This document shows positions 4,041 through 37,540 of a DNA stretch of 64,000 bases, one piece after another. Location: IMG/VR virus record IMGVR_UViG_3300027566_000006, positions 34,340 to 98,339 of that record; one strand, given 5' to 3'. This stretch comes from a virus. Numbering within the stretch: position 1 is the stretch's first letter; each line of letters starts with the position of its first letter. A program made the position numbers and the translations under genes. The notes beneath the pieces are model-generated. The model searched no databases, was not told where the DNA came from, and was given only the letters and a program-made list of their open reading frames with translations.

Positions 4041-4352
4041 TTACCATCCACTAATATGCATTCCTTCTGTACTGTATATTCTTACATATTTATATTGTTG
4101 TTCTAAACAACTGTTATTGTTTATGTAATCAATTGCTTCATCCTCTGTTTTAAATTCCTCTGATACCTGTTGAAAGTCTCCACCATTATCTTCTTTAACT
4201 CTTACGTTATACCCCGTTGCGGTTCTGTTTGCTTTGCTAGTATAGCTCTCTATATGTTTTCCTTCTGGTAATCCATCAAAAGGCATACTTAAACACGGTT
4301 GAATTGCTTTATTTCTACGTTTATTAAACTTCATTGCTTTAGCATAACTCAT
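4041..4352 (-). CDS. hypothetical protein (cassette-like)
   Basis: ORF with RBS, bounded by palindromic sites at 4016 and 4379. Confidence 0.65.
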   Translation of the reverse strand: MSYAKAMKFNKRRNKAIQPCLSMPFDGLPEGKHIESYTSKANRTATGYNVRVKEDNGGDFQQVSEEFKTEDEAIDYINNNSCLEQQYKYVRIYSTEGMHISGW

Positions 4353-4395
4353 TTGTTTGCCCCTTCCCTGTTATTGATCCAAATACCTATTTGGT

Positions 4396-4626: not shown

Positions 4627-4655
4627 ATTATAAGTCTATATGTTGCTATTGTCAA
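4627..4655 (-). promoter_or_regulatory. sigmaA promoter
   Basis: perfect TTGACA-17-TATAAT. Confidence 0.85.
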
Positions 4656-7302: not shown

Positions 7303-7332
7303 ATTATACCATACTCACAACATGATATGCAA
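7303..7332 (-). promoter_or_regulatory. sigmaA promoter (extended -10)
   Basis: TTGCAT-18-TATAAT with TG. Confidence 0.6.
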
Positions 7333-7358: not shown

Positions 7359-7541
7359 TTACGCTACCCTCTTGAGGTAACTTTGTCTCGCTGTTATATG
7401 CCTATTCATTCTTGTTTTCTTTATCTCTAGAGCGTTTTTCATTGATAAGTAATTAACCATAAAGCAACTAAATACAATTAGTATCCATCCGGCTGCAAAG
7501 TATTTAATGACTAGGGAAGAGACTGTTATTATATCATTCAT
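7359..7541 (-). CDS. small membrane protein
   Basis: single hydrophobic helix, GGAGG RBS. Confidence 0.6.
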   Translation of the reverse strand: MNDIITVSSLVIKYFAAGWILIVFSCFMVNYLSMKNALEIKKTRMNRHITARQSYLKRVA

Positions 7542-7631
7542 TGTTATACCTCCTTTAGTTTATTTTTTATATTATAGTTATAAGGTTTTTGAATTAAGCA
7601 GAACCTTTTAAACTGCTGTTATTGTTTTAGT

Positions 7632-9200
7632 TTACATTGCCGAACTATTTATATTTAACCTGTTCATCTCTTTTAATATCCTTTTAAATGCTTCTTGATA
7701 ATCTGTATCGCATGCTTTAGTACCCCATGCCATTTTACCAGTTATGTGATTCTTAATTATTGTTATTGCCTGTTCAAAGGTTTTATACTCGGCTGATTCT
7801 TTAATCATTGGGAATTTATAACCTTGTTGTAATACTTCTTTTAATGCCTTACCTGTTATAATAGTTTCCCAATTTCCCATATTGATAAAACGCTGATCAT
7901 CATCAAAATGCGGTCTGTTATAGAAGTTAGAGATAGTATATATTTTATTCTCAATTATATTATGGTTTTCTATTGCTGTTACTTTACGGTTACATTTATA
8001 AATAATTGTCGGTTCTGTATCATTTCCAGTATATACTTCATCCTCCCAAAACAATTCTGATCCTGTTAATAGTTCGGAGATTTTATGATATTTCTTGCTG
8101 TTATTATCCATTTTTAAGTAAGTTACTGTATATAGAGTATTTTCTTCAACATCTTCTGGAGTGATATTTTTAACTTCTGCCAACATACTGTTATTGTAAT
8201 TTTCAAGTTCTTCTGCTTCTTTTCTTCTTCTCTGTTCTCCTTTTTTTATATTGCAGTTCTCATCAAAGTATAATGTATTGCTGTCAAAACTATGGCAATT
8301 AAAGCTTAACGGTGTTATACCTTCTTTTGTTTCTCCTGCTGATACCCACCAACCTGAAGAACTTTCGATTATTCTTTCTGCTAAATGTATTAAATCAAGT
8401 GATGAGCCTCTTCCATAATTACATGCTGCATCATAAGCATAATCATCTGAATAATACCCGTCTTTTACTCCTTTGAATATTTGACCTGATAAAATAGCTT
8501 TCCAAACATGAGCAATAGTCCATTTTTTTGGTGTTTTAATTGGTTTGATTTCAACGAATGGAGAAAAGGTATTAATTCCTTTTTGTGAACCTTTGTCTAT
8601 CTCTAAAGTTTCAATATTCAATGAATCGGTTATTATTGCGTTATGAAATGCTTTTACGGTTTCAATTTCGCCGATGTTCCACAATTCTGTTAATACAGAT
8701 TTATGGTCATCCCATACATTTTTACGGATTGAATAACGATTACATTCTTTACCAATTTTTAATGCATTGGTAAGGTCGATTAATACTGCACTATCAGCAT
8801 AAAAATGAATATATGCGTTAATATCTGCAAAGTAGCCGGAAACTCTGCTATTCAATTCTATATCGCTTGATTTAAAGATTTCTGTACTACCTACAGTATT
8901 GTAAGAGGGAAAATAAGATTGTTCTGGTTTGGTTGTTGTGGTCTGGTTGCTATTATCTGTTATTACTAATTCTTGATCCTGGTTAATTTCTCCGCTTAAT
9001 TCTTGAGCCAATTTTAAAGTTTTTTCTGATTGTTTGGCATACCACAATTCTTTTTTCCATGAGAATCTAAATCCTGCATCTTTTAGAATGTTTTTAATGG
9101 TGTTATTTGGTTTCTCATCTTTAGGCCAATATAATTCCACTCCGTTTAATTCCTCATTGATTGCCATTTTAATACTGTTATTGTCTGACATTGCCAACAC
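7632..9200 (-). CDS. large polyvalent-type early protein
   Basis: N-terminal GVELY..KP...LK.AGFR...WYAK motif of the kind seen in phage/plasmid polyvalent proteins; likely ATG start at 9191. Confidence 0.5.
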   Translation of the reverse strand: MLAMSDNNSIKMAINEELNGVELYWPKDEKPNNTIKNILKDAGFRFSWKKELWYAKQSEKTLKLAQELSGEINQDQELVITDNSNQTTTTKPEQSYFPSYNTVGSTEIFKSSDIELNSRVSGYFADINAYIHFYADSAVLIDLTNALKIGKECNRYSIRKNVWDDHKSVLTELWNIGEIETVKAFHNAIITDSLNIETLEIDKGSQKGINTFSPFVEIKPIKTPKKWTIAHVWKAILSGQIFKGVKDGYYSDDYAYDAACNYGRGSSLDLIHLAERIIESSSGWWVSAGETKEGITPLSFNCHSFDSNTLYFDENCNIKKGEQRRRKEAEELENYNNSMLAEVKNITPEDVEENTLYTVTYLKMDNNSKKYHKISELLTGSELFWEDEVYTGNDTEPTIIYKCNRKVTAIENHNIIENKIYTISNFYNRPHFDDDQRFINMGNWETIITGKALKEVLQQGYKFPMIKESAEYKTFEQAITIIKNHITGKMAWGTKACDTDYQEAFKRILKEMNRLNINSSAM

Positions 9201-9271
9201 TCCTTTTATTTTTATTAATTAAACTCTTATTTTGGGATACTACTTAGAGCATCCCAACTATAAGAATTCAC

Positions 9272-9676
9272 TTAATTATTTTCGTAAAATTCTATAGTCT
9301 CAGCTATTGCAACTTGATACTCTTCAATGCTGTTATACTGATTTACCGTTATATCACCTTCGCAGTATGTGTATATATTATATGCGTTGTTATCGGCTAA
9401 TACTGCTCTATATCCGTCAACAAAGAGACAACTGGTGTTATAATGTTTATTTACTATGGATTGGAATGTGTAACAATCTCCGCATATATGGCCTCCATAA
9501 TATAGAATAGAATTATCTTCTTTAATTCTGGAATGTAAGCATATATCAATTATTTTATTACCTGTTAAGGGATAGTCTGGAATGATTTCATATTTATTAA
9601 AATTGATTCCCTTATAGTTATTATCACTTAGAATAGTTTGAAATTGTTCTGCTGTTACCTTAATTATATTTTCCAT
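9272..9676 (-). CDS. hypothetical early protein
   Basis: ORF with AAGGAG RBS. Confidence 0.65.
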   Translation of the reverse strand: MENIIKVTAEQFQTILSDNNYKGINFNKYEIIPDYPLTGNKIIDICLHSRIKEDNSILYYGGHICGDCYTFQSIVNKHYNTSCLFVDGYRAVLADNNAYNIYTYCEGDITVNQYNSIEEYQVAIAETIEFYENN

Positions 9677-9714
9677 TTTATAACACTCCTTTTTTCTTTA
9701 AACTTTATATTATA

Positions 9715-9743
9715 ATTATAATGGTTTAGTTTCATGTTGTCAA
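9715..9743 (-). promoter_or_regulatory. sigmaA promoter
   Basis: perfect TTGACA-17-TATAAT. Confidence 0.85.
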
Positions 9744-9753
9744 CATTATTTTC

Positions 9754-9924
9754 TTAGCCTGTAGGCTCAAGATTATATTTTTCACACCATGAGCAAAATA
9801 CATCAATATTAGCTTTTACTCCTTGCTGCTGTCTTACTGCTTGATATTGGTTATAATCTGCGTACCAACATCCTGCTACCTTATAAGCCTTTACCCCGTT
9901 AATGTGTCTTGTTTTCTTTTCCAT
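9754..9924 (-). CDS. small hypothetical protein (56 aa, not in track)
   Basis: MEKKTRHINGVKAYKVAGCWY..., AAGGAG RBS. Confidence 0.5.
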   Translation of the reverse strand: MEKKTRHINGVKAYKVAGCWYADYNQYQAVRQQQGVKANIDVFCSWCEKYNLEPTG

Positions 9925-10042
9925 TATTTCCAACTCCTTTTTTGTTTTTTATTTTTATTTAAGCTTAACACTTACAGAGGTTAACACTGGCTGTTATTAT
10001 ATTTTGTTTGTGTTATGTGTTAACCTTTAAAATGTTAATTCG

Positions 10043-10222
10043 TTATTTGGTTACATACCATGCCACAAATTTATTTTCTGTTCCATCTTGACTACTCCAA
10101 GGCGTATAATGTGCCTTATGATTTTTTCTAATATAGGTATTTAGATTTTCATTATTGCAAAATATTTTTGCTTGTTCTTCAGTATCAAAAAACTTAAATG
10201 TTGACTTATATCTGATGCTCAT
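10043..10222 (-). CDS. small hypothetical protein (59 aa, not in track)
   Basis: MSIRYKSTFKFFDTEEQAK..., AAGGAG upstream. Confidence 0.5.
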   Translation of the reverse strand: MSIRYKSTFKFFDTEEQAKIFCNNENLNTYIRKNHKAHYTPWSSQDGTENKFVAWYVTK

Positions 10223-10258
10223 AATATAAACATACTCCTTTTTATTTTTTGTTCTGTA

Positions 10259-10489
10259 CTAATTTGTTTTAATGGCAGGAATATTATATAAAACAATTTT
10301 CCCACTATCATTATATATATTATTGCAAACGCTCATTTTAAAATATTTTTTACCTTTTTTGATTCCTTCTATTACAAAGGATAATCCTTTTTCCTCCGCT
10401 TCTTTTAGTTCTAATTCCTCGAAAGATGTATTGTTGCTCCATCCATCTTTTATGAATTTATTTGTTATTTGTTCCACTGTTTTAAACAT
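10259..10489 (-). CDS. hypothetical protein (start revised to MFKTV)
   Basis: GGAGG RBS precedes ATG at 10489. Confidence 0.55.
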   Translation of the reverse strand: MFKTVEQITNKFIKDGWSNNTSFEELELKEAEEKGLSFVIEGIKKGKKYFKMSVCNNIYNDSGKIVLYNIPAIKTN

Positions 10490-10545
10490 TATTGTTATAC
10501 CTCCTTCCATTTTTTCACTTTGAATCAAATTTGCTATTGGTTTTG

Positions 10546-10824
10546 TTATTTGCATATTTCGCATATGCAATGTTGTGATCCACCTGTAAATATTCCTTTG
10601 TATACATCTGATTCAAGAATAAGACTCTTATAATTTCTTCTTGAATCTCCTGTATACATTACTTTAATTATGCCAGAAACATAATTCCGTAAAGTATACC
10701 CAGTAGCAAGGATTTTATTATCATCCATGCATCTAATTTGATATTTAAAGAAGTTTACCTTCTCACATACCAAATTTTGATTACCTAAGTATTTTTCGAG
10801 TTCTCCTGCTTTTAAAGTTTTCAT
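10546..10824 (-). CDS. hypothetical protein (start revised to MKTLK)
   Basis: GGAG RBS precedes the internal ATG. Confidence 0.5.
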   Translation of the reverse strand: MKTLKAGELEKYLGNQNLVCEKVNFFKYQIRCMDDNKILATGYTLRNYVSGIIKVMYTGDSRRNYKSLILESDVYKGIFTGGSQHCICEICK

Positions 10825-11125
10825 TCCTATCCACTCCATTCTGTTATTATTTTTATTTCCTTTTAATACCCTCAATTATGCCCAAATTGGGCATACTGGA
10901 AGGTACTGCTGTTATACTAAATAAATTTTAATTCCTAAATATATTTGTGAATCAATTCTAATTTTCTCAATTTCCCGTTCCTTGTATTCTTTTGGTATTT
11001 TGTGCCGTAAAATGTAATTGCAGACCATCAACATGCAATTCTATATTTTCTTTACCATCAAGAGTTTTTAATAAGTCATCAAATTTCATTCTGCTCCACT
11101 CCTTTTTTAATTCTGTTATTACCTA

Positions 11126-11155
11126 ATTCTAACAGATTTACTTTCATGTTGTCAA
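11126..11155 (-). promoter_or_regulatory. sigmaA promoter
   Basis: TTGACA-18-TAGAAT; shares TTGACAACATGAAA with the 9743 promoter. Confidence 0.65.
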
Positions 11156-11240
11156 TAGTATTTTATGCTTACAATTATATCTTTATTCTGTTATTTAGTG
11201 ATAAAATCAATCTTTCATCACAAGTATAGTTTAACTGCTG

Positions 11241-11534
11241 TTATACCGCTTGAGGGTAAAGTTTGCAGTATTCATCAAACAATTTCTCTGTTTCCCTTTT
11301 TGCATCTTTTAGCAGTTTAAACCTTCCAATAATATCTTGAGATTCTTTTTCCGTATTTTCTACTATGCCATAATAAAAAGGTCTTTTGATTGAATCGTGA
11401 CTGTATTCTTTTTCCATTTCTTGATATACAACTACTCTAATGGTTTCTAATGTATTGCAGGGATCACGGGCTTCAAAAGTATAACGGGGAGAATCGTCTA
11501 ACCAGTCATAACCTTTTGTCCATTTTTTAGTCAT
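11241..11534 (-). CDS. hypothetical protein
   Basis: ORF with AAGGAG RBS. Confidence 0.65.
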   Translation of the reverse strand: MTKKWTKGYDWLDDSPRYTFEARDPCNTLETIRVVVYQEMEKEYSHDSIKRPFYYGIVENTEKESQDIIGRFKLLKDAKRETEKLFDEYCKLYPQAV

Positions 11535-11569
11535 ATGATTTTCACTCCTTAATTATTTTATTAATCTGG

Positions 11570-11926
11570 TTATTGCTGATATGCACAAATAACCTTGTCA
11601 CCTAAATCAATGGCAAATCCTTTTTTACTCGGTAAAGGTTTGATCATATCAATAAATTTAGACTTTGTGTTATACTCAATTCCTGCTGCATCGATAAAAT
11701 TATCATTGAAATAATCCCAGGTTTTATAATTCTTATTGATAGTCTGCTCTAAGTAACATACTAGAGCTTTGTTGGCTGGTAAAGTGTATAGCGCATGGTC
11801 TGTTATAGTTCCCTGCTCGTCAATAGACTTGATAATTGATTTTTGGTTGTTCATTATGTTTCCTTCTTTCTTAATAATTATTTTTAGTTTGTTATACTGC
11901 GTATGAATATCTTCTACCTTCTTCAT
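11570..11926 (-). CDS. hypothetical protein
   Basis: ORF; true start probably MNNQK at 11854. Confidence 0.55.
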   Translation of the reverse strand: MKKVEDIHTQYNKLKIIIKKEGNIMNNQKSIIKSIDEQGTITDHALYTLPANKALVCYLEQTINKNYKTWDYFNDNFIDAAGIEYNTKSKFIDMIKPLPSKKGFAIDLGDKVICAYQQ

Positions 11927-12149
11927 CTATTAGATAAATATATTTGACTGAAGTTATTTTGTATTCTGCTCCTTTTGTTTTATGCCATTCAAATGTTCGG
12001 TCAACATGAATTATATATTCATTGTTATAAATTAGCATGTATTCAAATGTATCATACTCAGTTTTTTCTATTTCTAATAATTTCTCAAGGTCTTTTATTT
12101 TGATTTTTCCTTTTATTGATTCGGGCATAGATTTTTTATTGATATACAT
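11892..12149 (-). CDS. hypothetical protein
   Basis: ORF with GGAGG RBS. Confidence 0.6.
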   Translation of the reverse strand: MYINKKSMPESIKGKIKIKDLEKLLEIEKTEYDTFEYMLIYNNEYIIHVDRTFEWHKTKGAEYKITSVKYIYLIDEEGRRYSYAV

Positions 12150-12274
12150 TATGTTTTTACCTCCTTCCCTTATTACTATTCTGTTATTATTAATTCCTCT
12201 ATAGAATATTAAAATCTGTTATATCTTATTTATAGTTTGATTTTAACACTCTAACAAAAATTAATTGCTTGCTG

Positions 12275-12601
12275 TTATTGTGCGCTTGATCCGCTAACAT
12301 GAGCATAATTAGTTAAAAACCATTCTGTATATTTTTCAGCTTTAAACCATTTCGCTAGTTTATAATAACTTAATTCTCCTATTCCTGGTATTGGTTGCGG
12401 TTTTATTAATGCTTTTTTAGGTATCCAGCAAGTATATTTTGATAATTCCATGCTTTTAGATTCCATGTTATAACCTTGTAATTGTATAGCCTTATCTGTT
12501 ATTGCCGTTATACGTCCATGAAACATTCTACTAAATATTGCCGTCTCTGCTATTGCTCCACCTAAAGAAATGCTGATTTCTTGATATTCTCTAAAATCCA
12601 T
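12275..12601 (-). CDS. hypothetical protein
   Basis: ORF with GAGGA RBS. Confidence 0.6.
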   Translation of the reverse strand: MDFREYQEISISLGGAIAETAIFSRMFHGRITAITDKAIQLQGYNMESKSMELSKYTCWIPKKALIKPQPIPGIGELSYYKLAKWFKAEKYTEWFLTNYAHVSGSSAQ

Positions 12602-12606
12602 TATTG

Positions 12607-12861
12607 TTATTCCTCCTCTATAAATTCAACTATGTGCAAACCTTTATTCCAATTGTATTTACATATTTGACCACTAAAAATGTTATTGTCTGCATCAAGA
12701 AATAAGGTAATGTTATTAACATCTTTTTTCATTCCTTCCCGATATGGTTTGATATATGTTCTACAGATTAAGTGGGGAATGGTTCCTGCTACATTGTATA
12801 GGTCTGCAAACTGTCCACCTGGAGTAAATACGCTAGTTCTGATTTCTTCAATATTTACCAT
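12607..12861 (-). CDS. hypothetical protein
   Basis: ORF with AGGAGG RBS. Confidence 0.65.
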   Translation of the reverse strand: MVNIEEIRTSVFTPGGQFADLYNVAGTIPHLICRTYIKPYREGMKKDVNNITLFLDADNNIFSGQICKYNWNKGLHIVEFIEEE

Positions 12862-12958
12862 ATTTATCCTCCTTTATATTTTTGTTTTACTACTAATAAG
12901 CCTTGACAAGTGGTGCTAATTGTTATTTGTTATTAGTACCACTTAATAAGAATTATTG

Positions 12959-13195
12959 TTATTGATTTTTAGATGATATCCGACTGATATAGTTTTGAAA
13001 ATCCAGTATTGATATTTTAGTCATTGGCTGAGATGATATTTTATTTTTAGCTTTATATACCTTTAAATTTGTTTCTCTGGTGTCAAACTTGTATTCGCCT
13101 ATATGATACATTCCCCACCTATCAATGGTAGCTCCTGCTTGCTCTAGGATGGTATTAAGATCATTAATATGTTTTAACCTTTGGATTTTTGTCAA
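12959..13195 (-). CDS. hypothetical protein
   Basis: TTG start with GGGAG RBS. Confidence 0.55.
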   Translation of the reverse strand: MTKIQRLKHINDLNTILEQAGATIDRWGMYHIGEYKFDTRETNLKVYKAKNKISSQPMTKISILDFQNYISRISSKNQ

Positions 13196-13228
13196 TGTTA
13201 TCGACTCCCTTTATTTATTTTATGCCTC

Positions 13229-13258
13229 ATTATATCATACTGGTAATATGATTGTAAA
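13229..13258 (-). promoter_or_regulatory. sigmaA promoter (extended -10)
   Basis: TTTACA-18-TATAAT with TG. Confidence 0.65.
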
Positions 13259-13312
13259 GAGTGGATATTTATTTTTATTAAATGATATACTGCTCGTGAT
13301 AGGATAAGTCTG

Positions 13313-13495
13313 TTATATCATTTCTATTTTAATATCATTATGTTTTTCTTTATCTTTCATTACATCAACTATAAAGTGCATATTTGGAGTAATAGTTTCA
13401 TATTTTGTAGCATCTTCTATGTCGTCTACCATTTTGGGGAACACTTCTCGAACAATAAATTTTAAGTATTGATTTTCACATTTAATCACATACAT
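13313..13495 (-). CDS. hypothetical protein
   Basis: AGGAGG RBS. Confidence 0.6.
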   Translation of the reverse strand: MYVIKCENQYLKFIVREVFPKMVDDIEDATKYETITPNMHFIVDVMKDKEKHNDIKIEMI

Positions 13496-13545
13496 ATAAT
13501 AACCTCCTTTTCACTTGATTCCAAACGGTTATTTTATGCTGAGTG

Positions 13546-13842
13546 CTAATTTATTTTTACAAATTTTAATATACTTGATTCAACCCAAGTTTTCAATTCT
13601 TTATCTGTTATAGTCTTTTCCCAAATAAAACTTTTAAAATCTGTACTATAACAATGTAATTGACAACGGCCTATGATCCATAGATTATCTTGTAATACTT
13701 CATATATTCCATTATAGCAATCAAATTGATTTTGAATAATTACATGATTTATTTTTATATTGTCTTTTTCAGTTACCAAAATATATTTTACATTATTTTT
13801 ACCACAAAAGTCTGGTAGTATATCATTGTTATTGTTATTCAT
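13546..13842 (-). CDS. hypothetical protein
   Basis: GGAGG RBS. Confidence 0.6.
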   Translation of the reverse strand: MNNNNNDILPDFCGKNNVKYILVTEKDNIKINHVIIQNQFDCYNGIYEVLQDNLWIIGRCQLHCYSTDFKSFIWEKTITDKELKTWVESSILKFVKIN

Positions 13843-13873
13843 TTTTATTCCTCCAATTCATTTTTTTAATCTG

Positions 13874-14218
13874 TTATAGATTTACCGCTATAGTTCCGCT
13901 TTTAATCCAGCAATCACAATTAGCAATGACTGTTATTATTGTTATGGTATTATTTGTAATATTGCAAACTATCGAAAAATTGTTTGGTTTATCTTGTATA
14001 AAAATATCTCTGTTGCTACCAGCATAGGCTGTTATTGTTTTTTCTCCTAGACTGAGTATTGATCCTGTTACTTGGTAAAGATCAATTTGTCGTTGCTGTA
14101 GTCTGAGTTCTGCATGGTTTGTTAAGCGGATAGAATAGGTATTATTATTAATAGTGAATGTATTAATGGAAGTTCCCGCCTTTCTTTTGTGGTTGTGGTT
14201 GGTTGTGGTGTTATACAT
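13874..14218 (-). CDS. DUF4258/BECR-like small protein
   Basis: IRLTNHAELRLQQRQI and C-terminal ITIITVI pattern resemble RelE-like BECR RNase folds. Confidence 0.4.
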   Translation of the reverse strand: MYNTTTNHNHKRKAGTSINTFTINNNTYSIRLTNHAELRLQQRQIDLYQVTGSILSLGEKTITAYAGSNRDIFIQDKPNNFSIVCNITNNTITIITVIANCDCWIKSGTIAVNL

Positions 14219-14522
14219 TTATTATACTCCTTTCTTTTGTTATTTGTAATTGTATTCGGTTTATAATCTTTGACAATGGGTATTATATTTATTTTGATTC
14301 TATAATACCTATTAATAAGGATTATATTGTGATAGTGTTATGCAGGTCTTACAATTAGTTCATTATTCTTAATTTCTACTACTTGGAGCTTGCAAGTAGT
14401 GTTTTTTAATTTAAAGGTATCATTCACTTTATAATCCTTTTTAACCTTGCCTATTAGATTTAGACAACCGGGTGATCTAAAATATACTTTTTTCATTTTG
14501 TTGTGCTCCTTCCATTAGTCTG

Positions 14523-14729
14523 TTATATCATTCCAAGATATTCGCAGTATTCGCCACCATGATTATTATATAGTTTAGTTTGTTTCATTAGTGTATAGTC
14601 TTCTAATATGCTACATTGTACTAATAGTGTTAATTCTTTTAATGTTGCGTGTACTTGTATTCTCTTTGTGGCCATTTTAGATTTTAGGTTTCTGGCTTGG
14701 TTTGTTATTGTCTTTTGGTCTTTTGTCAT
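14523..14729 (-). CDS. hypothetical protein
   Basis: ORF with RBS. Confidence 0.5.
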   Translation of the reverse strand: MTKDQKTITNQARNLKSKMATKRIQVHATLKELTLLVQCSILEDYTLMKQTKLYNNHGGEYCEYLGMI

Positions 14730-14844
14730 TTTGTTATTTCCTTCTTTCTTTTTATTATTGTTCTGTTATTGTGTTTTAAATATTCTCTATAGAGCTAATT
14801 TTATTTTATACTTCTAATTAGCTCTAACAAAATATTATTTGGTG

Positions 14845-15219
14845 TTATGCTGCCGTTATGGTTTGTTCTGTTATTGTTTGTTCAGCTAATTGAATTAATT
14901 CTTTTAGGCTAAATCTATTACTTTCTTTTAGTTCGGTTTCTTTGTGTTCTTTTGTTATGCTCCATATGTTGCCATCATTGTTCTTAGTGGCTGAATAGGT
15001 TTCCGTAAAATATTTACCAATTCCATTACAATACTTAAAATAATAAAACCTAGTGTATTGTTTTTCCGTTTCCGTCTCGTTTGTTAATTTGATTAATGAA
15101 GGGTATTCATGATCATGCGATGGATTATAGATATAATTTGCTAGATCAATTTTAAAATTATTTGCGGTTTGGATTTGAGATAGTTTTTTAAGGTTTTCCT
15201 TTTTGAGATTTCTTGCCAT
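14845..15219 (-). CDS. hypothetical protein
   Basis: ORF with RBS. Confidence 0.65.
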   Translation of the reverse strand: MARNLKKENLKKLSQIQTANNFKIDLANYIYNPSHDHEYPSLIKLTNETETEKQYTRFYYFKYCNGIGKYFTETYSATKNNDGNIWSITKEHKETELKESNRFSLKELIQLAEQTITEQTITAA

Positions 15220-15317
15220 TTTAATTCCTTCTTCCTTTTATTTGTTATTTTGTGTATCTGTTATATCCTCTATAAAGCATATACTTAACTGTTATAGGTA
15301 TATGCTTTAACAAGATA

Positions 15318-15680
15318 TTAAGATATGAAATGTAATTCCCCATTAACTTCTAAACTTATTGCATCTTGATTAGCCATTGTTAGTAATTGTTCGCCTATTT
15401 CAATAGCTGACTCAATTGCAATTTCTAGGTTATTTGTGTAGCTGAATACTACGGTAATTTTTTCTTTTATCAATTCCCCTGATGCTGATTTCCAGTAACC
15501 TAGTGCGGATGTAGAAGTAGCTCCCCCATTAACCTGGGAGAACGTAGAAGCTGTTAAGTCAACCATTTTATTAATTAGTTCCTGTGATAATTCAATATTG
15601 TTTTTGTCTTTTGTCGGAACGTATAAAGAGATTTTATGGGATAATTTGAATAGGTTTTTCAAGGTTTTTTTGTTTTCCAT
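15318..15680 (-). CDS. conserved small phage protein (GGAT...G.W...E motif, DUF3574-like)
   Basis: NGGATST.ALGYWKS..GELIKEK; start revised to the ATG behind GAAGGA. Confidence 0.5.
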   Translation of the reverse strand: MENKKTLKNLFKLSHKISLYVPTKDKNNIELSQELINKMVDLTASTFSQVNGGATSTSALGYWKSASGELIKEKITVVFSYTNNLEIAIESAIEIGEQLLTMANQDAISLEVNGELHFIS

Positions 15681-15750
15681 TAGTGTTATTCCTTCTTTCA
15701 TTTTTTGTTATTTTAGCATCAAATCTCGGTTTTATACTGAGTGATATTAA

Positions 15751-15944: not shown

Positions 15945-16265
15945 TTTAGACTTCTAAAAACCTTCAAGCAAGATAATGTTTGTTGGTTGTTATCTTGATT
16001 CAAGATTCTCTATTCTCGGTTACTGCACTCTGTTCATATCTTTCAATTTATCTCTACTATACTTGTGCCGGGTCAATGCCTCCAGCTATACGGCTTAGTA
16101 GGTTAGAGTGCTATATTAGTATTTATATCCTCCACGATTCAATAAATACTTTTTGTATTAGAGCTTGCATGAGGTAAAGGTAACTCGAATCTGAATCGGC
16201 TGGCCTTTAGGTCTAAGCGGTCTAGGCTGTCGGCCTGTTGTTCGTGTGTCTGTATCTCTTATCTG
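15945..16265 (-). ncRNA. putative structured leader RNA
   Basis: GC-richer, ORF-free on the sense strand, at least 6 complementary segment pairs, directly after a consensus promoter. Confidence 0.55.
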
Positions 16266-16270
16266 AATTC

Positions 16271-16299
16271 AGTATATCAGGTTGGGAATATGAAGTCAA
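16271..16299 (-). promoter_or_regulatory. sigmaA promoter of early operon
   Basis: TTGACT-17-TATACT with TG extension and AT-rich UP element. Confidence 0.8.
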
Positions 16300-16555
16300 T
16301 AGTTTTTTTGAATATTTTTATATTTTTATTTTGATGATTGATTGAGAATAGGTTGGTATTAGATTGATAATATAATGGTGGTTGCAGCATGATTTGATTG
16401 TATAGGTGGTTATATGGCTCAAGGTTGGACGGTAGTATGTTTTATGATGTTTTGTATTCAGTTGGTTGGTTTATGGTGGTTGTTGGGGAGTATGAGAGGA
16501 GGTAATTTAATAGAAGATAAAAAATTGAACATTTACACGGTATAATAAGAGAATT

Positions 16556-17677: not shown

Positions 17678-18434
17678 GGTTTATTAGTCTCCTTTATTAT
17701 TTATTTGTTTACATAGTTATTATTATTGTATCATGTATGGTATTGGTTTGCAAGTATATTTATATTGTGGTTTTGTTAGAGTAAGACCAGACACAATGTT
17801 ACTCATATTGTATTATTATTTTGTATATATGACGCATATATAGTTTAATGTGCTATACTAATTAAATTATTATATGGTAATATGAGTATTATTTGTTTAG
17901 ATGTGAGGCATATATGGTGTAATATAGGATTAAATAGGTTTAATATGATGTAATGTGATGTTTAATTGTGTGATATTGTGGTTATTATGTATCATATATG
18001 ATGATTAATTAGTTTAATGTGTGTCATATTTAAGTTAATGTGATATACTATTTGTATGTCTTCCATAGTTGATTCCCTGTTATCATCCCCGAAAATTTGT
18101 CAAGTAATTTCCCTTGGCAGACTCCAACCGATAGCAATGAACAGTATCAAAACACATCAAGACCAGCCAAACTGATCCTATTAGTATAGTTTGCTCTATT
18201 CGGCTTATTTCTATCCATATTTCATGCTATCGGCAGCAAATATCAGTACAAAATACCTCTTTCATAGCGTCCATAATCAAATATAGAGGTACAACACATA
18301 TTCTGTAGTATTATTTCATGGTCTATAAATCCCATTATATCGGTATTCTTAGCACTTTAAGTAAGATTAACAGATTATCAATATAATTGACTAGGTATGC
18401 CCGCCCTACTTTACAAACTTTAGGGTAAAATTAT

Positions 18435-18448
18435 CGAACACATGTTCT
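18435..18448. promoter_or_regulatory. Gram-positive LexA (Cheo) box
   Basis: CGAACACATGTTCT fits GAAC-N4-GTTC. Confidence 0.55.
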
Positions 18449-18754
18449 ACATCTCTTCCCTATCGACATCGCGGTTCATTCCGATTCCGAGTAACAACGG
18501 TAAATATAAAATTCTAATAAATTTAATTCAAAATACATTCACTATGTAATCGTAAAACATACCAAAAATATTATAGTTTTAACCCTAAACACCACAGGGG
18601 TATATTAATAAATTTCAATAGATTTTTAATAATAACACCATACTAACTAACCCTCAATCCCTTATAAATCTACTTCTAACCTATTTACTTAATAAAAAAT
18701 AGTAGTTAATATACGAACCCATACATTAACTACTATCGAATATACTATATATCT

Positions 18755-20488
18755 TTATTTTATTAGTTTAATCTTTTCATAAAATCCTTTCCAATCGCCT
18801 TTTATATCATTTGGATACAAATATATCATCTCTCCATAAGGTAGTGTACGATATTTTTCCATCTTATTTTTCATCTTATCAATATAATATTTAATTCTAG
18901 TATTATATTGTTGCTGTTCTAAAGCAATTCCAAAATACTCAACAATATAAATATTATTATCAGTAAGTATAATCCAATCTGGGTTCATATTTTTTACAGT
19001 AATTTCATTTTCGCTGTTTCTATTATTATAAATAACCGTTTGAAATTCTTTTCTTAACATTTCATCTATAATACTTTCTTCCACTGAATCAAATTTATTC
19101 CTAATAATACCGATATCAAAATCCTGTTCAATAAACTTATCTGGATATAATCTATTAATCCATTCAAATAAAGAGTTGTCAAATCTTTTTTTATAAAGAA
19201 TATTATATAAGGTATCAGATTGCTTTCTTATGCCGTACTTAGTGATATATAAAGGTATTTTCTCAATTGGTAGTTGCATATCTTTTTCAATTAAATACCG
19301 CATAGCTTGATCTACATTATCTCTACTTTGCCAGTATTTTTGTCCTGTTATTGATTTGAACTTATAAGCTCCGTACTCATTATTAAAATATTTCATAATA
19401 AATCCTAATTTATCTTTTTCAACATTAATCACATACCAATAAGCCTTAGATTCTTTAAGCAAAGTATTATAATCATATGTATATACATCGTCTATATTTA
19501 TATTATTATTTTGTAGATACATATTAATAAGTTCTACTGCATCTTCAAACGTTATTTTTTGAATTATCTTTTTATTTTTTTCTCCTAAATTACTTTTTAG
19601 TATTTCTTTATTTTTCAATTTTTTATAAAAGTATTTGTCTACTGATTTCATACTTATGTATTCAATAGGTATTTTTGTTATTTCACTTAAAAACTCTTGA
19701 TTACATTTGTCTAAATTCTCTAATATTATTTCTTTATAAAATTTATTAAGTATGTTAACAACATTCAAACTATTATGTAATATGGACGGATAATAAATAA
19801 TCTTACCTTTTAAATACAATTCATATGTTTCATATATATTTTTGTTTTTATATTTATATATATTATATAGATCCTCCCCACCTTCGTAATAAGCTTTTGT
19901 AAATTCTTTATTGTTAATATATTCAATATGTAATTGTTCGCAATTATTACATGTAGTTCTTAAAGGTTTCTTATTATTTTTATTTACTTCTTTAACCCAA
20001 AAGTTTTTATGATAGGGATAATATTTATTACACTTATTACACCTTTGCCATATAATTTCTCCTTCAAATTCTTTTATAAATGCATTAATACATTCTTTAG
20101 ACCAGAAGTCATGTTGCTCTATTTCTTCTTCAGTTATACAATCTTTAAATTTCTCATTAAAGTTTATATCCACTTCTAAGTGTAAATAATCACATGCCTC
20201 TTTCATAGCTTTCCTTTGTTCAACAGATAACCTACCAATCTTGCTATTTCCTAATACAACCTTTAAACCATCTTTAGATATACAATATGTATTTTGTAGC
20301 CCACCAGTATTTTCTCCATAATCAATTTGAAATTCTTTTATGTATTCTCCATATCCATTCTGTTTTAATTGTGACGGTGATAAATTCTTTAATAATACTT
20401 TACTACCTATATAACTTAATGGATACCATACACCTCCTTCCTCCATTATCGGAACATTTGTTCTATTAATTACTATTTCCTTCTGCAA
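18755..20488 (-). CDS. multidomain protein: antirepressor-like N-term, Zn finger, C-terminal PD-(D/E)xK-like endonuclease
   Basis: CNKC/CNNC; FDSVEE...NPDWIIL...IVEYFG; TTG start at 20488 behind AGGAGGT; promoter TTGACA-17-TATAAT at 20537-20565. Confidence 0.55.
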   Translation of the reverse strand: MQKEIVINRTNVPIMEEGGVWYPLSYIGSKVLLKNLSPSQLKQNGYGEYIKEFQIDYGENTGGLQNTYCISKDGLKVVLGNSKIGRLSVEQRKAMKEACDYLHLEVDINFNEKFKDCITEEEIEQHDFWSKECINAFIKEFEGEIIWQRCNKCNKYYPYHKNFWVKEVNKNNKKPLRTTCNNCEQLHIEYINNKEFTKAYYEGGEDLYNIYKYKNKNIYETYELYLKGKIIYYPSILHNSLNVVNILNKFYKEIILENLDKCNQEFLSEITKIPIEYISMKSVDKYFYKKLKNKEILKSNLGEKNKKIIQKITFEDAVELINMYLQNNNINIDDVYTYDYNTLLKESKAYWYVINVEKDKLGFIMKYFNNEYGAYKFKSITGQKYWQSRDNVDQAMRYLIEKDMQLPIEKIPLYITKYGIRKQSDTLYNILYKKRFDNSLFEWINRLYPDKFIEQDFDIGIIRNKFDSVEESIIDEMLRKEFQTVIYNNRNSENEITVKNMNPDWIILTDNNIYIVEYFGIALEQQQYNTRIKYYIDKMKNKMEKYRTLPYGEMIYLYPNDIKGDWKGFYEKIKLIK

Positions 20489-21283
20489 ACTATAATAATA
20501 CCTCCTATTATTTCTAGGCATAGTATGCCTGATATTATTATATTACTATTATAATACAATGTCAACTATTTTATTTATATATTTATATTTTATTTTTAAT
20601 ACTTATTTTAATCACAAATTCCTCTCCAAAAACCCTTCCAATTTCTCAACCTAACCTTTCATACCACCCAACATCTTTCCTCTCAACCTTGAACCAATTT
20701 TATAATAAAATACAATAGTTTTTACCTATAAAAATCACACACTTAACTTTCTCTTTATCTCTGGTCAAATCACATATAAATCAATCCTAAATCTCATACC
20801 ATAATTTACTATGATTAAAATTAATCAATCCATTCTATTTCAGTTCTAATTTCACACACGCCCACATATATTTGCTATGCAATAGTAAATAACATAGGAT
20901 ATTTCTAACCTATTAACACTTTTAATCCTTTACCCCTCAATACACCTTTCTATTACCTTTCAATTACTCACTATTTATTAATCATAGTCATAAACATATT
21001 CATTTCATTTAAACGTACTCATACTATTATCTATTTCTTCATATCATTCATTTCTAATACCCTTTACCCATTAACATTCTTATTGCACAATAACATTTCT
21101 AACATTTCAATTGTTACTATTTAAAATTAATGTTAATTATACCTTCACATCTCACCAATTAAACTTTAACATAATTCCACTATTTACCCTTCTAATCTAC
21201 TTATATATTTCGTATATATCACTAACCACACAATATATAAAAAGTATATAAACCACAAATCCAATAGAAAGGAGCAATTTAAA

Positions 21284-32085: not shown

Positions 32086-34821
32086 TTGATCAAACAGCCC
32101 TCACAAAGATATATATACAAAATAAATTCTACAAGATTAAGAAAATCGAAATGGAATTTAAATATTGATATTGAAGAAGCAGTTAATAAAAAAGAATTGG
32201 TTTCTTTAGCTGAAAGCACCGCAATTAGATTTATAGATGGCTTGAACGGAACTAATACCGAATACATATATAATCAAATAAATAGCATTAATAAACAGCT
32301 TAAACAAATTAAAAAATTACCAACTTCTATTGAGAATCGCAGGAATATTAAATCTTTATATCAAAATAAATATAATTTATTATTGGTTAAAGATTATATC
32401 TGTATAGTTGTAGATACTATGAAAGATTTTAATAGGATGAATAGCAAAAAAGGTTTTTATATAAATGGAATTAGATATAAACATTTACTAGGAACACCAG
32501 GGGGTATAAAAAAATATTCGGTAATCTATGTTAATGAAAAAATTTATGAAGATTTAGAATCAAAAATAAATAATGGCAGAGATTTAACTAAAGAATTTAC
32601 ACCTTCAAAATTAGAGGCATATCGATCTTTAGTTTGCTCTGCTAGTATTCCTGTTTCAAATCCTAATGGTTTACTAGTAGTTAAAGATTGTGAGACAGAA
32701 TTTTTATCTAATATTATAAAAATAGACGATACTAAATCAGATTATCCAGAGATTACTTATGAAAAGGATTATCTTATAAAACTTAATGATAGTGATGGAT
32801 ATGGTCTTATATCACCAGAATTAAGTAAGCAATGGTTAAAAGAAATTGGTAGTGACGAAGATTATATACCTAGTGGTTACTGCCTTAGAAATTCCTTTTG
32901 CAAGGGTATGGTTTTTTGCATGGATTTTCAAGATTTTTCAGAGAATGTTGCGAAGAATTATATGGTGGAAGATGCGTGGGGGCATAGTATAGATATCCGT
33001 AAAGTAGATTTAGTCTTAACGACCTCGATGCTGAAGCTTTGGAATTCATATAATGACGTAAATCACTACCTAAGATGTTGTAAGGAAAATGGATATAGTT
33101 TTAGTATTACAAAACATATTTCAGAGACATTAGAAAATGAACGTAGTTTAAATTATCAATTCATTCAATCCCTTTATATGAATGATAAAGGGATTGAAGA
33201 ATTGATAAAACCAACAGTAGATGAAATTCATGATGTTTTGGATTTAGATTATAGGAAAAGTATATTATTTCTTAAAGGTATTCACTTAGATAATATAAAT
33301 TTCAATAATGAAACAAATGATTTTATTAAAGCATTAATGATTGATAAAAAAATGCTTAATGACCCTTTTGTTAAAAATAAAATACATAATATGATTAAAA
33401 AAAGAATAACCGAAGCTAAGATTGGAGTGCTAAAAACAAAATCTAATTACTCTGTAGTTTCAGGAGATCCCTTTAGTTTATGTCAAAGTATGTTTAATAT
33501 GGAAGTTACGGGATTACTTAAAAAAGGTGAATTTTATTCCAAGTATTGGAATGATAAAAATACTGATAAGGTTGCCTGTTTTCGTGCGCCAATGACTTGT
33601 CATAATAATATTAGAATTCTTAATTTAAAGAATACTGAAAAGATGCAATATTGGTATAAATATATGAAAACAGTAACAATATTTAATTCTTGGGATACTA
33701 CCGCTTATGCCTTAAATGGTTTGGATAAGGACGCAGACGCAGTTTACACAACAAATAATCAAACGATCCTTGACTCTATACGTGGTACGGATGCTATTTT
33801 CTGTGTTCAGAAATCAGCAAAATCTAAAGTGCCAAAAAAAGAAGATTTAATTCAATCTAATATAAATGGTTTTGGTGATGAAATAGGAATAACTACAAAT
33901 CACATTACTGCTATGTTTGATGTTCTTGCTAAATTTAAAGAGGATAGTTTAGAATATAACACTGTAATGGAAAGGATAATGTGTGGTCAGAACTATCAGC
34001 AAAACGCAATAGATAAAATAAAAGGTATAGTTAGTAAATCAATGCCTAAAGAATGGTATGATTACCGTTCTAATATTGATAATGAATTTAATAAAAGTAT
34101 TGTTGCTAACAAAAAACCTTATTTCTTTATCTATATATATCCTCAAAGAAAAAGGCAATATGTTAATTTTATCAAGCAAACAGAAACAACTTGTTTAATG
34201 AGATTTGGATTAACCATAGAAGAATTAATTGCTTTAGATGATAAAACAGAAGAACAAGAGAAATATCTTAAATATTATTATAATAGGATGCCAGTATCAA
34301 TAAATAAATCGCTAATGAATAAAATTTGTTGGAAAGTAGAACAAGAGTTTGATAATTATAATATAAATAAACTAGAAAGTAGTTTTGACTATAAGATACT
34401 AATGTCTGATGTTCAATATTCTAAAGGTAGATATAATGCAATTAAAAAATTATATCAAGAGTATATAGAAAAAATACAGCAATATTCACAATTAAATAAT
34501 TCAAAGAGAATTATTCAGGAAGATAAACAAATACATAAGCAAATATTAACGGATGATTTCAAAAAAAGAGCATATGAGTTATGTAATAATTCTAATGAAT
34601 TATGTAACATAGTGCTTGATATCTGCTACAAAAATAATAATTCCAAACAGTTTGCTTGGGATATATGTGGAGATGTGATTATTGATAATTTACTAAGAAA
34701 TAATAATTATAAATTTTCATACCCCGTTTTAAATCATAGTGGAGATATTGAATTTGGTGGAAATAAATTTTCTATGAAGGAATATACATTGGAGGTTATT
34801 GATGAAAATATTATTAAATGA
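32086..34821 (+). CDS. yonO: YonO-like single-subunit (RdRP-related) DNA-dependent RNA polymerase
   Basis: SDGYGLISP, FCKG, FRAP, metal-binding NGLDKDAD, AIDKIK; positioned ahead of late genes as in SPbeta. Confidence 0.85.
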   Translation: MIKQPSQRYIYKINSTRLRKSKWNLNIDIEEAVNKKELVSLAESTAIRFIDGLNGTNTEYIYNQINSINKQLKQIKKLPTSIENRRNIKSLYQNKYNLLLVKDYICIVVDTMKDFNRMNSKKGFYINGIRYKHLLGTPGGIKKYSVIYVNEKIYEDLESKINNGRDLTKEFTPSKLEAYRSLVCSASIPVSNPNGLLVVKDCETEFLSNIIKIDDTKSDYPEITYEKDYLIKLNDSDGYGLISPELSKQWLKEIGSDEDYIPSGYCLRNSFCKGMVFCMDFQDFSENVAKNYMVEDAWGHSIDIRKVDLVLTTSMLKLWNSYNDVNHYLRCCKENGYSFSITKHISETLENERSLNYQFIQSLYMNDKGIEELIKPTVDEIHDVLDLDYRKSILFLKGIHLDNINFNNETNDFIKALMIDKKMLNDPFVKNKIHNMIKKRITEAKIGVLKTKSNYSVVSGDPFSLCQSMFNMEVTGLLKKGEFYSKYWNDKNTDKVACFRAPMTCHNNIRILNLKNTEKMQYWYKYMKTVTIFNSWDTTAYALNGLDKDADAVYTTNNQTILDSIRGTDAIFCVQKSAKSKVPKKEDLIQSNINGFGDEIGITTNHITAMFDVLAKFKEDSLEYNTVMERIMCGQNYQQNAIDKIKGIVSKSMPKEWYDYRSNIDNEFNKSIVANKKPYFFIYIYPQRKRQYVNFIKQTETTCLMRFGLTIEELIALDDKTEEQEKYLKYYYNRMPVSINKSLMNKICWKVEQEFDNYNINKLESSFDYKILMSDVQYSKGRYNAIKKLYQEYIEKIQQYSQLNNSKRIIQEDKQIHKQILTDDFKKRAYELCNNSNELCNIVLDICYKNNNSKQFAWDICGDVIIDNLLRNNNYKFSYPVLNHSGDIEFGGNKFSMKEYTLEVIDENIIK

Positions 34822-35950: not shown

Positions 35951-37180
35951 TTGAGTGCAAGAATTTTCGTAGATACTAATATCCTAATGTCCCACTCCCC
36001 TGCCCTATTCAATACATATAACAATATCGATGATCAGATTTTAATTTGTGATGTAGTTTTATCCGAACTTGACAAACATAAATATTCATCTGATAAAAAT
36101 AAACAATTTCAAGCGAGGAAAGCACATAATTTAATCAAACAAAATAAAAGTAAAATTACCTTTTGTTTAAATAATAGAGGTTTTAAATTACCTGATTCTT
36201 TTGATCCAGAAGATCCAGATAATAAGATTATCAATATATTTAGAGATTTATATTTAAAAGATAATAGTTTGCTTATGTTGAGCAATGATTTGAATGTTCA
36301 ATTTAAGTGTGACTGTTTAGAATTACCTGTTGAAGAATTTGGTGAGAAAGATGATAAGGAAACCTACACTGGTTATAAGCAGTTAAGCGGAGACACAGAT
36401 TTTATCAATAATCTATTTAATGATATTAAAAATGGCGTTAATACTCATAACTTTTTAACTAATGAATATTTAATTCTCTCTAATACAGATTTAAATGATA
36501 CTTTTGAATATCGGTTTGATGGGAATAAATTTGCCGAATTAAGATTACCTCCTTCTAAAATTATTAAAGGTCGTAATAGTCTTCAAAGGTGTGCTTTGGA
36601 TTTAATAAGCAATAAAGACATTCCGATAAAAATTATTGCAGGAGGATTTGGTACAGGCAAAAGTATCTCATCAGTTAAAGTAGGTTTATATCAAACTCTT
36701 GATAGAGATTTTTATAAAACCTTGATGTATATAAGAAATCCGATACCTGTAGATGATACTGATATTGGATTTTTACCAGGAAGTAAAGCTGAAAAAATTG
36801 CAGATTATTGTAGGCCATTTTTACAGTATATTAATGATAAAAAAGGTCAACAAAGCGTTGAAGATTTAATTAAAAATGAAAAAATTAAAATGGATGCTGT
36901 CAGTTTCCTTAAAGGCGTATCTATTGAAGATAGTTTTGTAATTATGGATGAAGCGGAAGATTTAAATTTAAAATTACTTAAAACTATTGGTAGTAGAATT
37001 GGCAGTAAATCTTGCATCGTATTTACTGGTGATTGGGAACAAAGTGAAGGTAAATATAAATATGATAATGGATTACTTAAACTTATTCAACAGAAGAAAG
37101 GCGATCCTTTAATGGGTGTTGTGGTGTTGGATGAGGTATTAAGGAGTCCAGTAAGTAAGTTGTTTAATGATTTGAAATAG
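35951..37180 (+). CDS. phoH: PIN-PhoH protein
   Basis: PIN (VDTN, ELDKHK, DNKI, SND) plus GGFGTGKS, IGFLPG, IMDEAE, FTGD..Q. Confidence 0.9.
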   Translation: MSARIFVDTNILMSHSPALFNTYNNIDDQILICDVVLSELDKHKYSSDKNKQFQARKAHNLIKQNKSKITFCLNNRGFKLPDSFDPEDPDNKIINIFRDLYLKDNSLLMLSNDLNVQFKCDCLELPVEEFGEKDDKETYTGYKQLSGDTDFINNLFNDIKNGVNTHNFLTNEYLILSNTDLNDTFEYRFDGNKFAELRLPPSKIIKGRNSLQRCALDLISNKDIPIKIIAGGFGTGKSISSVKVGLYQTLDRDFYKTLMYIRNPIPVDDTDIGFLPGSKAEKIADYCRPFLQYINDKKGQQSVEDLIKNEKIKMDAVSFLKGVSIEDSFVIMDEAEDLNLKLLKTIGSRIGSKSCIVFTGDWEQSEGKYKYDNGLLKLIQQKKGDPLMGVVVLDEVLRSPVSKLFNDLK

Positions 37181-37464: not shown

Positions 37465-37540
37465 GCACCAGTAGCACAATTGGTAGTGCAATCGCCTTGT
37501 AAGCGATAGGTTACGGGATCATACCCTGTCTGGTGCTCCA
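37465..37540 (+). tRNA. tRNA-Thr (UGU)
   Basis: acceptor GCACCAG/CTGGTGC, anticodon arm ATCGC-CTTGTAA-GCGAT, encoded CCA, 76 nt. Confidence 0.9.

Follow-up and report, generated by a model that had tools for sequence, protein, structure and literature searches.

In the early gene arm of a large SPbeta/c-st-like phage we found dozens of copies of the word ATAACAG, all on the coding strand and packed into a block of about 8 kb, and the same word, on the same strand, fills the corresponding place in at least eight relatives, with a ninth showing the same skew by whole-record counts only; this is a real one-directional signal, whose reader was not identified here and which most resembles the end-clustered Chi sites of some other phages. 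The window analysed is a stretch of 64,000 nucleotides (positions 34,340 to 98,339 of the IMG/VR record IMGVR_UViG_3300027566_000006, a contig of 98 kb), and the features discussed below are collected in the table. The original prediction had counted 34 copies of CTGTTA on the + strand (TAACAG on the sense strand of the leftward genes) between 7391 and 15294, one copy in the opposite orientation and a rough expectation of about three, and had described the word as lying in coding sequence, overlapping stop codons, occurring in hairpin loops and being sparse elsewhere. This observation is confirmed and is even stronger than proposed: we count 37 copies over the same interval and 38 up to 15556, against a single inverted one, whereas the expected counts for the 8.4-kb block on the sense strand are 4.1 (order 0), 4.2 (order 1) and 7.9 (order 2). 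The other ~90 kb of the contig holds 14 copies on that strand, and an unbiased local k-mer scan of the whole contig ranks TGTTAT on + (ATAACA in sense) first, with P about 1e-52. The true core of the word is ATAACA, which occurs 64 times in sense and twice in antisense and is followed by G (31), A (20), C (9) and rarely T (4); the full ATAACAG is often followed by C.

Coordinates of the array and of associated features in the 64,000-nt window
Position	Strand	Feature
7391..15556	-	Array of 38 TAACAG (31 ATAACAG; 64 ATAACA), all on the sense strand of about 20-25 small leftward ORFs without known family (no PHROG or Pfam match), and in their spacers
11130..11135	+	The only copy in the opposite orientation inside the array
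12272..12277	-	Example of a copy whose TAA is the stop codon of an ORF (12275-12601); the same occurs at 10909 (a doubtful 40-aa ORF), 11238, 13310, 13871 and 14520
15258..15294	-	Two intergenic copies; one sits in the loop of an 11-bp hairpin downstream of ORF 15318-15701 (read from the sequence)
4111..4373	-	Two stray sense copies downstream of the array
18077..19350	-	Two stray sense copies upstream of the array: 19345 inside the 588-aa first gene of the arm (18755-20521), 18077 in the spacer downstream of it
16271..16299	-	Sigma-A-like promoter (TTGACT-17-TATACT with TG) that opens the transcription unit in which the array begins
15950..16270	-	About 320-nt G+C-richer, non-coding leader between that promoter and the first array gene; no Rfam match; role inferred only
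20522..21283	.	Divergence point of the early (leftward) and late/RNAP (rightward) arms; the word points away from it on both arms; corresponds to the yonP/yonR gap, which holds the SPbeta opening point
35951..37180	+	PhoH-family protein (PIN+PhoH by alignment with that of the relative G001), just downstream of the YonO-type RNA polymerase; weak candidate reader (partial co-occurrence only)

The excess is not explained by codon usage or by the encoded peptides, and loss under a codon model had, together with absence from related phages, been named beforehand as a ground for rejecting the signal; neither ground holds. Inside coding sequences TAACAG occurs 23 times, against 3.4 +/- 1.8 in codon-order shuffles and 8.4 +/- 2.1 in synonymous-codon shuffles, both non-stop frames are about 7-fold enriched, and the density is highest in the spacers; over the Markov, codon-order and synonymous nulls we put the excess at 5-15-fold. 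The overlap with stop codons holds for six ORFs. The proposed location in hairpin loops holds for one clear case only, near 15289, and overall the word is only slightly more unpaired than composition-matched hexamers (0.65 vs 0.57, P = 0.03). Gaps between copies range from 24 to 843 bp without period and the flanks are not conserved, which does not fit the contiguous, regularly spaced repeats of iteron or centromere arrays. No Rfam family was found in positions 1-24000.

Among related phage records (designated here by G numbers), the same word fills the same place, that is, the proximal part of the arm diverging from the late/RNA-polymerase arm, in G001, G002, G010, G011, G012, G013, G420 and G421, within the first 8-25 kb of the arm, while G429 shows the skew in whole-record counts only (23 vs 5), unplaced. 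Copy numbers in the two orientations are 31/0 in the phage studied here, 26/0, 9/0, 17/0 and 16/2 in relatives, and 60/8 and 46/7 in G421 and G420, respectively. The genes in this place are not homologous between the three phages compared (our phage, G001 and G002), and in relatives the word is patchy gene by gene. However, the close relatives G014-G017, c-st and SPbeta lack the array, and neither SPbeta nor c-st has a comparable local word of its own; an enrichment of TACATA/UACAU noticed in motif-free relatives is, in G016, a genome-wide sense-strand bias and not a local array. Single-protein scans with the 522-aa, 345-aa and 856-aa proteins found no relatives.

The polarity of the word flips at the divergence point, since in the right arm ATAACA is found 17 times on + and 4 times on -, the layout of Chi on bacterial replichores. 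Furthermore, the reverse word TGTTAT is depleted on mRNA-sense strands outside the array against a codon-aware null, with ratios of 0.31 in our phage (z -5.2), 0.18 in G002, 0.48 in G010, 0.56 in G011 and 0.56 in G420; under an order-3 model it ranks 2-19 among about 3000 hexamers, and the base preference at position 7 is mirrored in the depletion. It should be noted, however, that this depletion is weak in G001, G012 and G421 (0.65-0.78) and partly present in motif-free relatives (0.71-0.85). The sense word outside the array is at expectation (0.76-1.28 of codon shuffles).

A search for the reader among phage proteins gave no convincing candidate. The type of RNA polymerase does not track the motif, as G014 has the same polymerase clade without an array, and G010 and G420 have a different clade with one. 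MazF sequences do not separate carriers from non-carriers in an alignment. A PIN-PhoH protein of about 390-420 aa tracks the word only partly: it is present in eight carriers (our phage, G001, G002, G011, G012, G013, G420 and G421) and absent from c-st, G004, G015, G016, G017 and G019, with G014 having only a PIN-less 217-aa PhoH, but it was not found on the 65-kb fragment of the carrier G010, the PhoH proteins of carriers are only 24-28% identical to that of the window, and most of the 34 PhoH-bearing phage records checked show no overall excess or strand skew of the word. G003 also has PIN-PhoH, but its contig lacks the early arm. TAACAG fits the Myb site CNGTTR, yet RsfA-like Myb genes sit beside MazF in both carriers and non-carriers, and none is found in our phage, G001 or G011. 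An antisense extended -10 promoter, an AR9-type AACA-N6-TW promoter and complementarity to tRNA anticodon loops were likewise rejected, because the flanks do not fit. A literature search for the word found only plant and animal MYB sites. No protein found only in carriers was identified beyond weak integrase-like and PhoH hits.

The original prediction offered two readings of the signal, an RNA-protein site (antitermination or mRNA protection) or a Chi-/KOPS-like DNA motif acting on first-injected DNA, and this interpretation is partly supported: the data show a polar, selected nucleic-acid signal, which by analogy with c-st and SPbeta lies next to the genome opening point, but they do not decide between the two levels, and neither KOPS proper nor antitermination is supported. 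Tentatively, and without regarding it as more likely than not, we favour the view that ATAACAG is a strand-specific recognition word read on DNA, and that the array is a dense, co-oriented block of Chi-like control sites for a helicase-nuclease of the AddAB/RecBCD kind, covering the zone of the early arm in which the ends of packaged genomes fall. In this view, a nuclease entering the exposed end of the injected DNA would meet a correctly oriented site within a few hundred bases, would then stop degrading and would leave a recombinogenic 3' tail that can be used to circularise the genome. What our analysis demonstrates is the word, its polarity, its selection independently of coding, its conservation in position but not in gene content among the relatives, and the counter-selection of the reverse orientation in several carriers; that the virion ends lie in this zone, that the reader is a host helicase-nuclease, that it recognises the word and is attenuated by it, and everything following recognition are inferences. 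The DNA-level reading gains from the depletion of the reverse orientation in our phage and four of the carriers tested, from the flip of polarity at the divergence point and from the position of the 404-bp terminal repeat of c-st, which lies about 6 kb into the early arm, while the opening point of SPbeta lies in the yonP/yonR gap and the array here starts 4.8 kb from the divergence point. The independence of the motif from polymerase clade and MazF type fits a reader that is host-encoded or otherwise conserved.

Caution is nevertheless required. The virion ends are placed by analogy only: just two groundwater runs hold the stretch, both as contigs, and the Logan contigs run straight through the block without visible ends, no RNA data set holding it is listed, and which strand would be active depends on the packaging direction. 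With regard to the host, a scan of genome contigs gave one 4.4-kb MAG contig and a class-wide polymerase search returned no taxon names; the only candidate, a 1.3-Mb Bacilli MAG with a contig carrying a 64-65%-identical polymerase, holds 245 copies of the word against 172 of the control (1.4 times), and the 301 genomes of its class range from 0.2 to about 3.3 times the control. Known Chi words of Firmicutes are G-rich, the array is about ten times denser than any described Chi cluster, and the first 4.8 kb of the arm carries almost no copies. The array also stops abruptly at operon-like boundaries, at the promoter and leader at 16299 and at a new promoter near 7330, which looks like a property of transcripts.

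A less likely, but still serious, rival is an RNA-level tag, in which AUAACAG would mark immediate-early transcripts for a sequence-specific RNA-binding protein or endoribonuclease, for example the phage PIN-PhoH protein, the phage HTH-MazF or a host RNase, so that the early, anti-defence-type messages would be shut off, or stabilised, together, following the logic of T4 RegB or of the proposed MazF cleavage of lytic transcripts in phi3T. Beside the operon-like borders, the slight excess of single-strandedness, the patchiness gene by gene and the partial co-occurrence of PIN-PhoH, it speaks for this reading that the word is confined to the sense strand of operons with strong sigma-A-like promoters, that a MazF sits in the lysogeny module, and that MazF has been suggested to cleave lytic transcripts (PMC10769878). 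However, an RNA tag gives no reason to purge the reverse word UGUUAU from all other mRNAs while the sense word there stays at expectation, so that the other phage messages do not avoid the word, and the evidence on MazF and PhoH given above further weakens it.

Co-oriented binding or loading sites for another directional DNA machine or polar DNA-binding protein appear unlikely, be it a KOPS/SRS-like guide for an FtsK/SpoIIIE-type pump or a Tus-like polar barrier protein coating the early block, with the orientation chosen to let transcription and forks moving away from the divergence point pass. The word does point away from the divergence point on both arms, the non-permissive orientation is depleted, c-st encodes an FtsK/SpoIIIE-like protein (CST193) as the second gene of its early arm, and G001 encodes a RecD2-like helicase there. 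Yet outside the array the permissive orientation is not enriched, the 588-aa first early gene of the window is not related to the c-st protein, which has no homolog at the start of this arm, and has no Pfam match, and c-st itself has no such array. A by-product of restriction evasion by strand bias (TAACAG also has the shape of BREX or type III sites, the word is an asymmetric 6-7-mer in one orientation, the opposite orientation is purged, and the strong avoidance of the palindromes AGATCT, CTTAAG and AGTACT shows that restriction pressure on this genome is real), or of composition or common descent of the block, is very unlikely and already largely refuted, since evasion explains bias but not a 10-fold excess, the flip between the arms gives head-to-head pairs on a circle or on a genome opened at the divergence point, the excess survives all composition and codon nulls, and the block genes are not homologous between the three phages compared.

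It remains possible, though doubtful, that ATAACAG is the recognition word of a previously undescribed one-directional control system, which would define the first-entering, immediate-early domain of a widespread group of large Firmicutes phage-plasmids and be read either on RNA, for example by the PIN-PhoH helicase-nuclease, giving that ubiquitous phage protein a function, or on DNA by a reader unrelated to RecBCD/AddAB or FtsK. If the array is Chi-like, it would reveal the Chi word of an uncultured low-G+C host group and show that large temperate Firmicutes phages protect or circularise their incoming DNA with an extreme site array instead of an inhibitor protein; if it is read on RNA, it would be a new way to regulate a whole block of anti-defence genes together, and could give a function to phage PhoH/PIN proteins or to the MazF step in SPbeta-type lysis-lysogeny decisions. 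In either case the word is a simple marker, locating the early, anti-defence gene block in uncharacterised phage contigs, and is directly accessible to experiment.

The closest known systems are the terminally clustered, co-oriented Chi sites of the phages LLS (20 of 23 Chi in the active orientation, clustered at one end), MD8 (32 vs 0) and P1 (50 Chi) (PMC12315714), which share with our array a short asymmetric word, many copies nearly all in one orientation, concentration towards one genome end, a location inside coding sequence, and presence in some phages of a group but absence from close relatives. Here, however, the word is not a known Chi, no link to RecBCD/AddAB has been shown, the density is one per 130-270 bp against one per about 1.9 kb in LLS and P1, and the block has sharp, operon-like borders. 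The KOPS (FtsK) and SRS (SpoIIIE) guide words are likewise polar 7-8-mers pointing away from a central point on both arms with the reverse orientation counter-selected, but they are spread genome-wide and enriched towards the terminus, whereas here the excess is confined to one 8-25-kb block and no FtsK-like reader is encoded in the early arm of this contig. The GGAG sites of T4 RegB and MazF-site-rich transcripts resemble the array as short words enriched in early messages of a phage which also encodes toxin-type endoribonucleases (PIN-PhoH, MazF), but RegB sites sit about one per gene in ribosome-binding sites, while here the copies are scattered through coding sequence, the late genes do not avoid the word, and it is the reverse complement that is purged. 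Finally, the EcoP15I sites of T7 share with the array that all copies of an asymmetric hexamer lie on one strand, with none inverted, but T7 shows a single orientation across the whole genome and a modest excess, whereas here the polarity flips at the divergence point and the local excess is about 10-fold.

The 98,339-bp IMG/VR phage contig, of which the window is bases 34340-98339 and which comes from a groundwater metagenome, is estimated by CheckV to be 56% complete, and its G+C is about 28%. The single-chain, YonO-type RNA polymerase that it encodes is 44% identical to that of Clostridium phage c-st, and a ParM-like protein, a terminase and a portal are encoded as well. The left 54.8 kb of the contig is transcribed leftwards and the rest rightwards, which is the layout of SPbeta and c-st. 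The positions of the features discussed here are collected in the following table.

Features of the window that bear on the array, with positions in window coordinates
Feature	Position	Strand	Remark
Array of CTGTTA	7391-15556	+	TAACAG on the sense strand of the block
New promoter where the array ends	near 7330		
Promoter just upstream of the leader and array	16299-16271	-	sigma-A-like
C/A-rich spacer	about 16340-16540	-	followed by the sigma-A-like promoter
Spacer, promoter and leader region	15950-16540	-	320-nt G+C-richer non-coding stretch ending in a hairpin just before the array
Perfect TTGACA-17-TATAAT promoters (three)	20537-20565, 9715-9743, 4627-4655	-	leftward, in the early arm
Divergence of the two arms	20521/21284		
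YonO-type RNA polymerase	32086-34821		
PhoH-family protein	35951-37180	+	PIN+PhoH by alignment with that of the relative G001; beside the polymerase
tRNA-Thr(UGU)	37465-37540	+	single phage tRNA
IS605-type transposase-like gene and homing-endonuclease gene	39324-42023	+	between the exonuclease and the terminase genes

The strand-polarised accumulation of TAACAG that had been claimed by the original prediction is confirmed, although the core of the word proved to be wider than the prediction had recognised. CTGTTA occurs 38 times on the + strand of the array and only once in the other orientation, whereas Markov models of order 0, 1 and 2 expect 4.1, 4.2 and 7.9 TAACAG on the sense strand of this 8.4-kb block; the remaining ~90 kb of the contig holds 14 copies on that strand. 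ATAACA is found 64 times in sense and twice in antisense, followed by G in 31 cases, A in 20, C in 9 and T in 4, preceded by A or T, and often followed by C. A blind scan for locally enriched words ranked it first, at about 1e-52, and nothing else in the contig came near.

The enrichment is not a by-product of coding. Inside the ORFs 23 TAACAG are present, in comparison to 3.4 +/- 1.8 in codon-order shuffles and 8.4 +/- 2.1 in shuffles that keep every protein as well as the codon usage. The two frames that do not create a stop are each about 7-fold enriched, while in frame 0 the word ends 6 ORFs; nine copies lie in about 1.5 kb of spacers, which is the highest density. The single phage tRNA, Thr(UGU), reads ACA, the codon inside the word in its commonest frame (xTA ACA Gxx). 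Since the flanks carry almost no information, the array is not a dispersed repeat, and the ORFs of the block have no PHROG or Pfam family. These ORFs are driven by several consensus sigma-A-type promoters; besides the three perfect promoters of the early arm several others match 11 of 12 positions, all pointing leftwards. The array begins just downstream of a promoter and a 320-nt non-coding stretch without Rfam match, which could be a leader or a small RNA, and it ends where a new promoter starts.

Related loci were found by searching with the polymerase, with a methylase-helicase from the relative G001 and with the PhoH protein, and they show the same word on the sense strand, in the proximal 8-25 kb of the arm that diverges from the late arm. 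Counted as ATAACAG copies in array versus opposite orientation, the related records gave 26 vs 0 (G001), 9 vs 0 (G002), 17 vs 0 (G010) and 16 vs 2 (G011), with about 17-21 copies in G012/G013; counts over the whole record gave 46 vs 7 in G420 and 60 vs 8 in G421, and 23 vs 5 in G429, where the whole-record count alone shows the skew. Weaker clusters are seen in G428, G423, G424 and G449. Of the carriers, G001 (IMG taxon 2654587505) and G010 (2547132108) are proviruses in isolates. The block genes of our contig, G001 and G002 are not homologous to each other; in relatives they include a methylase-SNF2 helicase and amidoligase/GATase-type proteins, which is typical early anti-defence cargo. Neither an array nor a substitute word was found in the complete relatives G014-G017 and G019, nor in c-st and SPbeta; G014 is close to G001 (polymerase 56%, methylase-helicase 66%). 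In G016, one of these motif-free relatives, ATACATA/TACATA, which contains the UACAU site of Bacillus-type MazF, is about 2.5-fold enriched on the sense strand across about 100 kb, the whole minus arm (L084-L094).

A second signature is the depletion of the reverse complement, TGTTAT, on mRNA-sense strands outside the array. Under an order-3 model it ranks 2nd of about 3000 hexamers in our contig, G002 and G010, and 7th-19th in G011, G001 and G012, but about 1100th in c-st and 204th-246th in G015 and G016, with G014 (71st) and SPbeta (87th) lying closer. Against codon-order shuffles the ratios are 0.31 in our contig (z -5.2), 0.18 in G002, 0.48 in G010, 0.56 in G011 and 0.56 in G420, yet only 0.65-0.78 in G001, G012 and G421, and motif-free relatives give 0.71-0.85; the effect is therefore real but uneven. 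The sense word outside the array is at expectation (0.76-1.28). The depletion mirrors the preference at position 7, CTGTTAT and TTGTTAT being the most depleted and ATGTTAT the least, and polarity follows the arm, as in the right arm ATAACA is found 17 times on + and 4 times on -. Outside the array the palindromes AGATCT (0 vs 14.9 expected), CTTAAG (2 vs 14.1) and AGTACT (4 vs 17.4) are also strongly avoided in the whole contig, whereas G001 avoids CCWGG, GGATCC and CCATGG; these look like footprints of different host restriction systems.

Regarding the putative reader of the word, neither the polymerase clade nor the MazF type tracks the array. A PIN-PhoH protein next to the polymerase is present in every carrier with enough sequence and absent from seven non-carriers; in G014 the syntenic gene is missing and only a 217-aa, PIN-less PhoH exists elsewhere. 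However, these proteins are only 24-28% identical to the one of the window, many PhoH-bearing phages have no array, and none was found on the fragment available for the carrier G010. A Myb-like candidate failed as well: in G012-G017, which comprise both carriers (G012, G013) and relatives without the array, a 157-180-aa Myb_DNA-bind_6 (RsfA-like) protein is divergently adjacent to the phage MazF, while in our contig MazF is instead fused to an HTH domain. The exact conservation of a 7-mer across such diverged phages suggests a host-encoded or otherwise conserved reader. A candidate MAG for the host and 301 genomes of its class show at most a 3.3-fold excess of the word.

The interpretation put forward by the original prediction, a polar signal acting either as an RNA-protein site or as a Chi-/KOPS-like DNA motif, is partly supported: the data show a polar, selected signal but do not decide between the two. 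Tentatively, and short of an even chance, we favour a Chi-like polar DNA signal, because the copies are co-oriented and the reverse orientation is counter-selected. The array length (8-25 kb) would also fit the spread of headful ends downstream of a pac site. Against this reading stand the unidentified host, the extreme density, the A/T-rich word and the operon-like borders. It should be noted that the word, its polarity and its independence from coding are shown by the analysis, whereas its recognition by any protein, the Chi-like function and the relation to headful ends are inferred.

The main rival, which we consider less likely, is an RNA tag on immediate-early messages that would be read by PIN-PhoH, MazF or a host RNase. 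It fits the borders and the partial PhoH association, as well as the suggestion that MazF cleaves lytic transcripts in phi3T (PMC10769878), but it does not explain why the reverse word is purged while the sense word is tolerated elsewhere. A KOPS-like guide or a polar barrier fits less well and seems improbable, and restriction evasion or composition is the least likely of all.

Comparison with known systems adds to the reasons for preferring the Chi-like reading. The polarity of the word flips at a central point, as that of Chi does on replichores. In c-st the terminal repeat lies about 6 kb into the early arm, and in SPbeta the opening point lies in the yonP/yonR gap. A precedent is provided by the phages LLS, MD8 and P1 (PMC12315714).
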